From: an uncultured Verrucomicrobiae bacterium
GTDB lineage: Bacteria; Verrucomicrobiota; Verrucomicrobiia; Limisphaerales; Palsa-1400
DNA length: 64,000 bases
Direction: 5' to 3'
NCBI GenBank assembly: GCA_963707025.1
Contig: CAVPOM010000006.1
Span: 1 to 64,000 of the forward strand
The position numbers were made by a program. Below are positions 38,701 to 41,700 of the stretch, piece by piece (the stretch's first letter is position 1; each line of letters begins with the position of its first letter).

Positions 38701-41700
38701 CCAGGACCCGCCAGAAGAGTTGTTCGGCCATCTGGGCCGGACGCTCCCGGTTGGCGTGGGAGAGGCCGTTGCGGCTGGGGGCGCTGGCGCCGCGCAAAGT
38801 GGACAGCGGCCCGGAATGCAATTGCAGCGAGTCGCACAGATCGTTGAGTCCGATGCAATGGGTGAGTTGCGCGTCCAGCAAACTGACCGTGTGACTCCAC
38901 GGACTGAAGGTGCGCGACTTATCCAGAGCCCCGGTCTCCCGCGCTATTTTGGAGACTTCATGCGCAGGAATGAGATTGCAAATCTGGCGCAAAACGTTAA
39001 ACCGGGACCGTGTTGGTTTGATTTTTTTGTTTTTCATGCCTGCCTTGTGGCAGGTTCAAATGGTCAAGCCAACACTTTTTTCCAATTTCCTGTGGGATGG
39101 CTGTGAATTCAACTTTCTCTTCTTTGGCGCTTGGGAGTTAGTAAAGCCGATTTCTTTAAGGAGGTAAATCTTGGTGCAAAACACGAAAAGGTGCTGCGGT
39201 TAGCCCTGATGAGTGAAGACCCATTAGACCCTTTGCAATACCCGTGTGCTTTGACCGGAGTTTTGATCGGCGGCACGTTTAATCCAGACGGTATTTTACC
39301 GCCAAGTCGCGTGCGCGGTGCCTACGATCACGGTTATTGTGTCTTGATCGGCGGGTTTCTTTACCATTTCATTGTAATGAGCCATCCCCCCCCGAAGGAG
39401 TTCGCGGGCGTTTGCGTATCCAAGGCGGGACAAATGCGAATACTTGTTCAAGAAGTTCGAGACATCCCTTTTCTCGCTGAAATCGTTCACGAGTTTGGAA
39501 CAGCGATTAGGGATAGGGAGCGGCGCGGGACTTCTTAAACAGAACCGTGAAAGTGAAAGTGAAAGGGTCGGTCCTGAAAGGGTAGTGAAAGGGTCGGTCC
39601 TAGAAAGATGACATGTTTCGTTCTTCGTTCTCTGCCTCCTCCCTCATAAAAAAGTCCCGCAAAATTGCATATTGTTGTTTTCTGGCCGCATGGTTGAGCT
39701 AGTTCGGTTCGGAACCGGCCGAATCGAAGTATAATCGTCCGGCAATGCAGTTCAAGCTCATTTGCCGCAAGGGAACGAAGCGCAACCAGCCGCAACCGAA
39801 TCCGGAATTGCAGAATGGAACAACACTATAAAGTGCGTCAGAGGCGCGGGCAGATCACGCATCCGCCTTCGCCAAGCCAGCGGGCGTAAATGTAACGCAA
39901 GGTAACGGGGAGGTAACGGCCCCAAAAGCCTCAAGTCCCTCAGTTTCAACAGGTCTAACGGGGTACCAGGTGTAGCGCATACAAGTGTCCATTCTCTCTT
40001 TTTAAACTTTCGCTTTTTTTCTCGCTCAGGGCAAGTGTCGGTCCCTGATTCCCGCCCAAGTCGAGGATGGCGCACGGCAAGAGCGTTCGGCGGGACGCCG
40101 AACGCGGCGGGCGAGACGCCCGCGCTCCCCAAAGATCTGCATTTCGGTGGTGCAATAGGAAGCTATTTATCATTTCTCATTTATAATTTATCATTTCTCA
40201 TTTCCCGCTCAATCGTGTCCGCCATGGCGCCGGGGGTGAGGCCGAAGTGGGCGCGGGCTTCTTCCTGGTCGCAGGTGTCATGCAGAAATTCGTCGCGGGT
40301 GCCGAAACGGAGGAGGCGACCCGGGGCGCGCGCGGCGGCCAGCCATTCGGCCACGGCGCCACCCAGGCCGCCCAGCACACTGTGCTCTTCAATCGTGGCC
40401 ACCCATTTGAATTTGGCAAAGACTTCGGCCAGCAAGGCCTCGTCCAGCGGCTTGATGCTCGGGAAACTGACCACCTTGGCGGAGAGGCCGTGTTTTTCCA
40501 GTTCTTGCGCCGTTTGCATAACGGCGGGCAGCATGGTGCCGGCGCTTAACAGGCAAACGTCGGTTCCGTCGCGGATGGGCAGAGCCTTGCCGATGATGAA
40601 TTGCGGCTCGGTTTTGTGGACGGCCGGTTCCCCCTTTTTGCCGATGCGAATATAGACCGGATGCGGATATTGCAGGGCGGCCTTGAGGGCGCCGCGGACT
40701 TCCATGGCATCGGCGGGAGCGAGGACGGCCAGGCCGGGCAGCAGCCGCAGCATGCCCATTTCCTCGCAGGAATGGTGCGTGGCCCCCAGCGAGGCGTAGG
40801 AAAGACCCGAACCGGTCCCGACCAGCACCACCGGAACATGGTGGTAGCAAACATCCACGCGAATCTGTTCCAGGCAGCGATAGGTGAGGAAGGGGGTGAT
40901 GGTGTAACAGAAGGGGCGCAAACCGCTCATGGCCATGCCGGCGGCCATGCCGATCATGTTGGCTTCGGCGACGCCGCAATTGAAAAAGCGCTCGGGGCAT
41001 TTGGCCTTCAAATTATCGAAAAGCCGGTTGCCGATGTCGCCGGCCAGCAGGACGACGCGGGGGTCTTTTTCCGCCAGCTCGGTGATTTGTTTGGCGAAGG
41101 CGTTTCTCATGGAAATGCAAAATGCAAAATGCAAAATGCAAAATGTTTGCTCATATTCACTTTCCGCGACTTTTGTTGATTATGGTGATGAAAATGGCAA
41201 TTAGTTCGCGTGTTTCGCCGAGGAGCGGCGCCGTTTTTGCCGGGCGGACGAGGCCCTCATCAACCAGCAACTCAATCCAGTATTCAGTTTCCTCCAATTC
41301 CCGAAGGGAGTCACCCATCTTGGAAATGAATTCCGCCTTTGACCGCCCGCGGTTTGCCTCGCGATAATTGGCTCCCACAGAAGTCCCGGATCGGAGGAGT
41401 TGCTTTCCGAGGACTTGGGCGACGGTTTCCTTTGGCAATGAAGTGTACAGGTGGATGATGCGCCGCGCATATGCCTTCGTGCGTATTTTCAAATCATGTG
41501 GCTTGTTTTCCATTTTGCATTTTGCATTCTGCATTTAAGAGTTCTTTCTTTGCCGCCGCAACTTCCTCCGCGGTCGGCACGCGATAATGCCAGTTGTTGT
41601 CGTCCTCCATGAAAGAGACGCCCCGGCCTTTGACGGTGTGAGCCACGATGGCGATTGGCTTGCCGCTGCCATCGGGGATTTTTTCCATGGCCGCCGCCAG

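Follow-up and report, generated by a model that had tools for sequence, protein, structure and literature searches.

Genes of the four-helix-bundle family TIGR02436/PF05635 are boxed by inverted tracts of short tandem repeats, and the repeat unit and its period go with the protein clade across phyla, not with the host. Inverted flanks with a score of at least 14 are found at 147 of 186 distinct homologous loci, as compared with 4 of 306 shifted windows, which bears out the boxing across many phyla that the initial annotation of this DNA had proposed. The gene and its arms are best explained as a RAYT/REPIN-like system of a protein and its cognate repeat, with a four-helix-bundle pentamer and short tandem repeats as its components, in which the protein would bind the repeats and the cassette would be mobile. 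The probability of this reading is estimated to be roughly 0.55.

In the window, which is the whole stretch of 64,000 nucleotides analysed here, a TIGR02436/PF05635 gene is wedged between the split N- and C-terminal halves of a transketolase gene and is boxed by inverted AAAATGC tracts. The features are as follows.

41157 to 41513, minus strand: four-helix-bundle gene TIGR02436/PF05635, 118 aa (profiles, 2RLD match with E 4e-21, predicted structure)
41506 to 41536, minus strand: 5' arm, a purine-rich heptamer tract (AAATGCA type on the coding strand), TTTTGCA x4.4 (tandem-repeat scan)
41113 to 41145, minus strand: 3' arm, an inverted tract AAATGCA x4.7 with five AAATG cores on the plus strand (tandem-repeat scan)
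41494 to 42375, minus strand: host gene, transketolase N-terminal half (profile, E 5e-79)
40181 to 41110, minus strand: host gene, transketolase C-terminal half (profile; comparison with genome G013)
40165 to 40203, minus strand: solo heptamer tract of the unit family of the window cassette, across the transketolase-C stop (absent in G013)
31521 to 31545, unstranded: solo tract of CAATCCG, which is the unit of the paralog that precedes lpxA (tandem-repeat scan)

The ORF of the window gene matches TIGR02436 with an E value of 1.9e-24 (86 bits against a cut-off of 24) and PF05635 with an E value of 9.8e-20 (71 bits against a cut-off of 33.8). Its ATG lies inside the last unit of the 5' arm. This arm is located at the transketolase-N end, where the transketolase-N reading frame runs through it, and the 3' arm stops 2 nt short of the transketolase-C ATG. 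The two arms form a 31-nt inverted repeat with a complementarity of 94% and a spacing of 362 nt, and the RNA of the cassette is predicted to fold with a closing stem of ~30 bp (z -2.8). The window copy sits between protein genes and not in 23S rRNA, and loci L001-L204 contain no 23S.

The predicted structure of the window protein (pLDDT 94.9) is all-helical and consists of four helices. Its VIA Z is 18.9 to 2RLD (rmsd 1.5, 111 aligned), 16.6 to 2GSC (1.7, 111) and 13.6-14.0 to Avd; the best structural matches are limited to these three, and no nuclease-like fold is found among them. Gln38, Asn49 and Glu75 are invariant residues. The profile matches of the gene are to PF05635 only, and neither an HUH (Y1) tyrosine transposase nor a DDE transposase is detected by profiles and predicted structure. 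The window protein is probably a homopentamer, by analogy with the homologs 2RLD and 2GSC, which have five chains; a pentamer is also the state given for the S23p family in the available text of PMC4990558. Avd resembles the window protein in being a four-helix bundle and a pentamer, with an identity of 14-15% (PMC6182149, bioRxiv 2023.10.23.563531), and all five of its protomers bind one RNA stem-loop with bases flipped into clefts, according to the accessible part of the bioRxiv report. The target of Avd is an RNA stem-loop, whereas the putative target of the cassette protein is a periodic repeat. Among the window genes scanned, there is no DGR partner RT with template and variable repeats.

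The genome of the window contains seven PF05635 matches, of which six are above the cut-off. Five of these are short genes, all of which bear heptamer arms, with five different units. Three of them pass the strict box test, the gene at C2:24531 is recognized by its inverted-repeat score (27.5), and the gene at C2:64805, the 3' arm of which is decayed (score 9), is judged to be boxed by eye only. The boxing of these genes therefore stands as annotated, and the statement that each gene has its own unit holds for these five but is better put as the protein clade setting the unit. The sixth gene, which had been considered unboxed, is a TIGR04258 fusion with 9-mer tracts upstream and inverted copies within its ORF. 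Because five units exist side by side in one genome, each with its own paralog, no genome-wide homogenizing takes place.

When genes are ignored in the scan, four gene-sized strict inverted heptamer pairs are found, three of which enclose TIGR02436/PF05635 genes; the fourth contains no gene and has REP-like palindromes instead. Among 1674 small genes, a box or strong inverted flanks are detected only at three family genes, two Y1 transposases and one DUF559 gene, in a survey that is based on our own gene calls and misses the window gene, because it is called too short. Tandem arms are present at none of the three matches to GxxExxY genes in this genome. Heptamer tracts are mostly intergenic (157 of 196), and 96 of the 157 intergenic tracts differ by at most one mismatch from one of the five resident units, for which the chance level is 100 of 1172 unit classes. 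Gene-less tracts of the resident units are thus dispersed over the genome, as previously noted.

The cassette occurs as an insertion where, in conserved operons, one gene stops and the next one starts, as well as in helix 45 of 23S rRNA. The transketolase site is filled in G000, G003, G005 and L052 and empty in G013, in which the transketolase halves are directly coupled via an ATGA overlap without tracts or cassette. In G003, G005 and L052, both arms of the orthologous gene carry other members of the unit family. At the site upstream of the gene that we take to be lpxA, by resemblance and from the initial annotation, 4 of 25 genomes are filled, 18 are empty, one retains a remnant of the 3' arm and two are unscorable, in agreement with the claim that relatives mostly lack this copy. 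The interpretation as a gene-plus-repeat cassette that is present or absent at orthologous sites is supported. The accB-accC copy is an old one that has been inherited mainly vertically (it is present in 37 of 41 genomes of the genus), and none of 20 accB-accC junctions from genomes without a cassette there has a heptamer tract. The labels metK, ahcY, carA/carB, nrdA, nrdR, atpH/atpA and accC are presumptive.

Gene-less arm pairs are real insertions, even in frame inside purL. In alignments of 11 of 30 genomes, selected for gaps or odd lengths, purL has an in-frame gene-less pair of 81 nt (counted by hand) in five genomes and lacks it in six, and the mraW end has a partly decayed gene-less pair in five rows (six counting G124) and lacks it in five. 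The unit switches jointly in both arms of the purL pair, and the pair in G145 has the unit of the only family gene of that genome. Some solo arms are mere remnants, because a solo arm in G001 is left behind by a deletion. The longest word shared at the junctions of 141 loci equals the shuffled null for target-site duplication, a signal that old inserts could have lost; G003 provides the single case, of 8 nt.

The 186 loci of the family-wide survey are those kept from 200 profile hits after removal of duplicates, of proteins shorter than 75 aa and of loci with flanks shorter than 150 nt, and 39 of them are without clear inverted flanks. In a first locus set, 82 of 109 loci are boxed, as against 0 of 342 shifted controls. 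The period of the repeat is 7 at 139 loci, 9 at 17 and 8 at 15, so that the annotated 7-bp unit is the commonest but not the only one. In the family tree, which is a FastTree tree of 98 columns, the 9-mer clade comprises Bacteroidota, Thermodesulfobacteriota, Planctomycetota and Gemmatimonadota, the 8-mer clade comprises Acidobacteriota, Chlorobiota, Nitrospirota and Verrucomicrobiota, and the AGTGG-type clade comprises about ten phyla. Over the 163 labelled rows of this tree (159 with a phylum), the period changes 8 times and the phylum 51 times, with phylum labels that are taken from record titles, some of them clearly mislabelled, and with the relatives assigned to Verrucomicrobiota. Tract likeness increases with protein identity from 0.03 to about 0.5, equally within and between phyla, and the correlation between tract and protein is 0.44 (r) between phyla, as compared with at most 0.20 in 300 within-phylum permutations. 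This coupling of clade and unit could be explained by co-inheritance, that is, by descent alone. One query of a phage collection gives no family match.

The number of cores per arm is four in 75, five in 103 and six in 15 of 248 arms. It drops sharply at six, and the detection limit, at about three copies, affects these counts at the low end only. Both arms have five cores in 10 of the 13 distinct inserts in rRNA described below. The number of copies per arm is near 4.5 whether the period is 7, 8 or 9, although the loci are few for period 8 (11) and period 9 (7); it is the copy number and not the length that is constant. At the 142 loci where both arms score at least 8, the 3' arm is located -12 to 20 nt from a start at 83 loci, the 5' arm is located -15 to 20 nt from a stop at 88, and the own start codon lies inside the arm at 26. 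An arm is closer to its own partner than to the arms of other loci (81 vs 21).

The published GGGAATC repeats of Xanthomonas box the gene of Xcc0516 (XCC0516), a family member with a solved structure (PDB 2GSC). According to PMC4692102, as far as its accessible text goes, there are 186 such tracts between housekeeping genes, 70 of them in convergent inverted pairs and mostly of four units, and they are interpreted as possible G-quadruplex formers. Tract 15 of the list overlaps the XCC0516 start and is entered there as unpaired; the gene also has an inverted 3' arm. In the accessible text and supplements of that paper the expression 'helix bundle' is absent, and the tracts are not linked to a protein. 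When orthologs are chosen by a protein motif alone, 20 of 20 are boxed, 19 of them at accB-accC.

Genome-wide tracts track the resident gene. At least ten tract matches are found in 27 of 34 Lysobacteraceae genomes with the gene and in 5 of 36 without it (70 scored genomes, with G112 left out); the Fisher p of 4e-8 exaggerates the strength of this link, since related genomes are not independent. In the seven gene-positive genomes with few tracts, the genes are located elsewhere and have different units. In five of five genomes, the dominant unit changes along with that of the resident gene (341:3, 41:8 and 296:8 vs 30:55 and 6:18). Tracts are present and the gene is not found in G053, G064, G080, G087, G094, G144, G125 and G150. 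The unit type of the window gives 220, 103 and 19 matches in three relatives that are known to carry the window clade, and 0-7 in 12 others. Y1 enzymes are found in 21 of 25 tract-rich genomes and in 13 of 25 tract-free genomes.

Intervening sequences of 23S rRNA that contain an S23p ORF represent the wider cassette at one of its insertion sites. In Coxiella, three to four direct heptamers precede the S23p start codon of the 23S insert, a terminal stem of 28 bp is formed, RNase III cleaves at the first heptamer of this stem, and the S23p protein is apparently not produced (PMC4990558, available text). A scan with the helix-45 motif and two Coxiella heptamer units, that is, with one unit type, gives 24 matches, among which Coxiella itself is not included; 17 are in 23S rRNA (13 distinct, from 13 genomes) and 7 are outside rRNA. 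The hosts of the 23S inserts are Alpha-, Beta- and Gammaproteobacteria and Oligoflexia. Fifteen of the 17 rRNA-borne inserts have a family profile hit and two are disrupted. All the 23S inserts found have an inverted heptamer right arm, a feature outside the scan pattern, and all 13 distinct ones have both arms. These inserts share with the cassette the protein family, the terminal inverted repeats and the heptamers at the start, whereas the majority of cassette copies are located between protein genes, and at those sites nothing points to selection for RNA pairing of the arms.

The family is also matched by 32 plasmid records, mostly from cyanobacteria (Nostocales); of 12 of these that were fetched, 10 have inverted arms and two have a 3' arm only. 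The cyanobacterial STRR sequences are 7-bp tandem repeats that form hairpins between genes and are described as being of unknown function in the accessible part of PMC2670836; the accessible part of PMC5088731 uses them solely for typing. They resemble the cassette arms in the 7-bp tandem unit and in hairpin formation, as judged from their description.

Under the preferred reading of a protein with its cognate repeat, each protomer would read one core of a single-stranded arm, so that five cores would be bound per pentamer, by analogy with the five protomers of Avd; the mode at five cores suggests a single strand of ~35 nt with one core per protomer. The two arms would be separate recognition sites that mark the ends of the cassette. 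The protein, probably with a host enzyme or another enzyme in trans, would insert or renew arms at new places, and the inserts would persist where they are harmless. In rRNA, the arms would be selected to pair, and RNase III would then remove the insert. A more far-reaching version, in which the pentamer itself drives a new class of mobile repeats by counting five cores and writing or renewing the arms alone or with a housekeeping enzyme, is tentative and is favored less than the alternative of its being wrong. If true, it would provide a general source of the bacterial heptamer excess, of the Xanthomonas and cyanobacterial hairpins and of the ORF-bearing 23S inserts, and a re-programmable code for recognition of a repeat by a protein.

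It is unlikely, although more probable than the other rivals, that the protein is a domesticated post-transcriptional regulator, TRAP- or CsrA-like, the pentamer of which binds tracts in mRNA and controls its own start and many housekeeping starts, with tracts arising by slippage and selection and the gene being moved by ordinary recombination. The positions of the arms near starts and stops, the own start within the arm, the long vertical residence at accB-accC, the mode at five cores and the transcription of the cassette at operon level are consistent with this. However, 36 of the 70 related genomes do without a copy, the host sites are arbitrary, and the arms occur at both ends and in both polarities. 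Moreover, slippage is an unlikely source of the inverted pairs inside purL or of the joint switch of both arms. Less probable than a regulator is an intervening sequence at the mRNA level, in which the sole role of the arms is to form an RNA stem, which loops out the insert and is cleaved by RNase III, the protein being a passenger. The RNase III cut in Coxiella, the unit order of the rRNA-borne arms, which is in register (11 vs 2), and the predicted stem of the window cassette agree with it. Outside rRNA, however, G.U mismatches are not in excess (111, vs 127 A.C) and the unit order is not in register (23 vs 23), and a selected RNA stem is not supported there. In RNA-seq (two raw-read runs of one study and two contig runs), the G124 cassette is transcribed in the sense direction as strongly as its operon, with mild coverage dips beside the arms, but there is no depletion, no pile-up of read ends at the arms and no true skip joint. 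Splicing of the cassette from mRNA is rejected: the apparent skips, with 23-31 nt at each side and an unknown middle, are reads from other tract loci. The link of genome-wide tracts to the resident gene would also be left unexplained. Because each arm is nearest to its own partner, yet without a wobble or register signal, the two arms have the appearance of recognition sites that are each maintained on their own, and selection for their pairing seems to be confined to rRNA.

Writing of the arms by a retro-element, in a telomerase-like manner, with the protein as an Avd-like cofactor of an RT that copies or writes them, is slightly more doubtful still. It would account for the fixed copy number and the concerted renewal of both arms, and there are 17 RT matches in the genome of the window as well as the likeness of the fold to Avd, although Z values near 13 are borderline in the case of helical bundles. 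No match to PF00078 (RT) is found in 20 of 32 tract-rich Lysobacteraceae genomes, the richest ones included, and a need for a resident RT is therefore unsupported. It is hardly conceivable that the boxing is due to chance, that is, to heptamer repeats that abound in certain genomes and accumulate at gene borders under weak constraint, those of a foreign gene included. Heptamers are over-represented in many bacteria (PMC4692102, accessible text), and most tracts found here are gene-less, but both sets of shifted controls already contradict this explanation, no other family among the 1674 small genes has a heptamer box, and all 20 loci that were chosen by protein motif alone are boxed.

The cassette is similar to RAYT/REPIN in that a single resident gene is flanked by cognate inverted repeats, many gene-less inverted doublets are dispersed between genes, the family of the repeat is linked to the gene and persistence is long (PMC3116915, available text). 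It fails as a member on the enzyme and on the form of the repeat: RAYT is an HUH tyrosine transposase and REP units are palindromic, whereas the cassette protein is all-helical and a predicted pentamer, and the arms are composed of about five tandem 7-9-mers. It differs from a DDE insertion sequence or MITE in the lack of target-site duplication at the 141 loci and of an encoded DDE transposase. In the openly searchable literature, which does not include curators' family notes, no paper was found that links the family to flanking repeats; PMC3936711, PMC10053308, PMC5524665, PMC8700078 and PMC6182149 mention the family or Avd but, in their accessible parts, not flanking repeats.

A very large family of unknown function thereby gains a specific, testable candidate ligand, and the Coxiella 23S heptamers, the Xanthomonas GGGAATC pairs, the cyanobacterial heptamer hairpins and the general heptamer excess are joined. 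Specificity can be tested cleanly with the paralogs of a single genome, which differ in their units. Should the protein spread the arms as well, the cassette would be a system of repeat mobility without a known nuclease. In the genome of the window, the purine-rich strand of the tracts runs outward from the closest gene end in 107 cases vs 34, as judged from our own gene calls.

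Among the orthologs of Xcc0516 (loci L230-L249 and L259), the Xanthomonas family member of known structure (PDB 2GSC), the residue that follows the Glu of the 'RRS..E' motif is mostly Tyr when the gene is boxed by GGGA-type arms and Leu when it is boxed by GTGA-type arms. This residue is a candidate specificity residue from sequence comparison, and is given here as a lead, as the correlation is confounded by descent.

At the transketolase site of G003 and G005 (L198 and L200), a remnant of an older repeat unit adjoins the start codon and a tract of the new type lies outside this remnant, as if the arms had been renewed from outside. 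At the gene-less arm pair within purL, the spacer and right arm are bracketed by a 10-nt direct repeat in genome G124 (L321), and only the left arm is retained in genome G118 (L336). The state in G118 looks as if a deletion had occurred between 10-nt direct repeats like those of G124. One genome has 23S inserts in two of its rRNA operons (L207 and L229) in which a gene-less inverted heptamer hairpin stands in place of some 120 nt of the four-helix-bundle ORF.

Strong inverted flanks are found among the 1674 small genes of the window's own genome, G000 (our own gene calls), only at the four-helix genes, a DUF559 gene and two Y1 genes. The last three each have their own flanking palindromic repeats:

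G000:C6:562575-562898, DUF559 gene
G000:C14:199524, Y1 gene
G000:C3:101946, Y1 gene

Palindromes of the same type as those flanking the DUF559 gene also occur at G000:C6:181964-182441, where two REP-like palindromes are enclosed by inverted AAAATGC arms, so that the repeat elements are nested. At G000:C3:154026-154233, a heptamer is repeated in tandem about 30 times without a mismatch. The same genome contains sixteen reverse transcriptase matches at 16 places, nearly identical to each other, which likely represent an active group II intron-type element.

The long family member L006 (G000:C6:305739-306483), which has a TIGR04258 suffix, is preceded by 9-mer tracts, and its ORF contains an internal inverted 9-mer pair that is translated as GQSGQS and STQSTQ runs.

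At L350 and L360 the cassettes sit between cas6 and cas4 and between cas10 and cmr3. An association of PF05635 with cas loci is described in PMC3936711; this association may reflect mere insertion at operon junctions.

Other features of the window are as follows:

34979-37025, C5 methyltransferase with the N-terminal part of a BsuBI/PstI endonuclease as fusion partner; the C-terminal part lies in the next ORF, in a different frame
37808-39037, DDE transposase (Pfam match, PF01609)
40100-40133, REP-like palindrome 3' of transketolase-C
45239-47124, DUF6788 gene, together with a transposase-like ORF that lacks a Pfam match and probably carries a frameshift
58327-58494, 51-nt repeat in 3.3 copies
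60562-60847, duplication of 144 nt where a Y1 transposase gene ends
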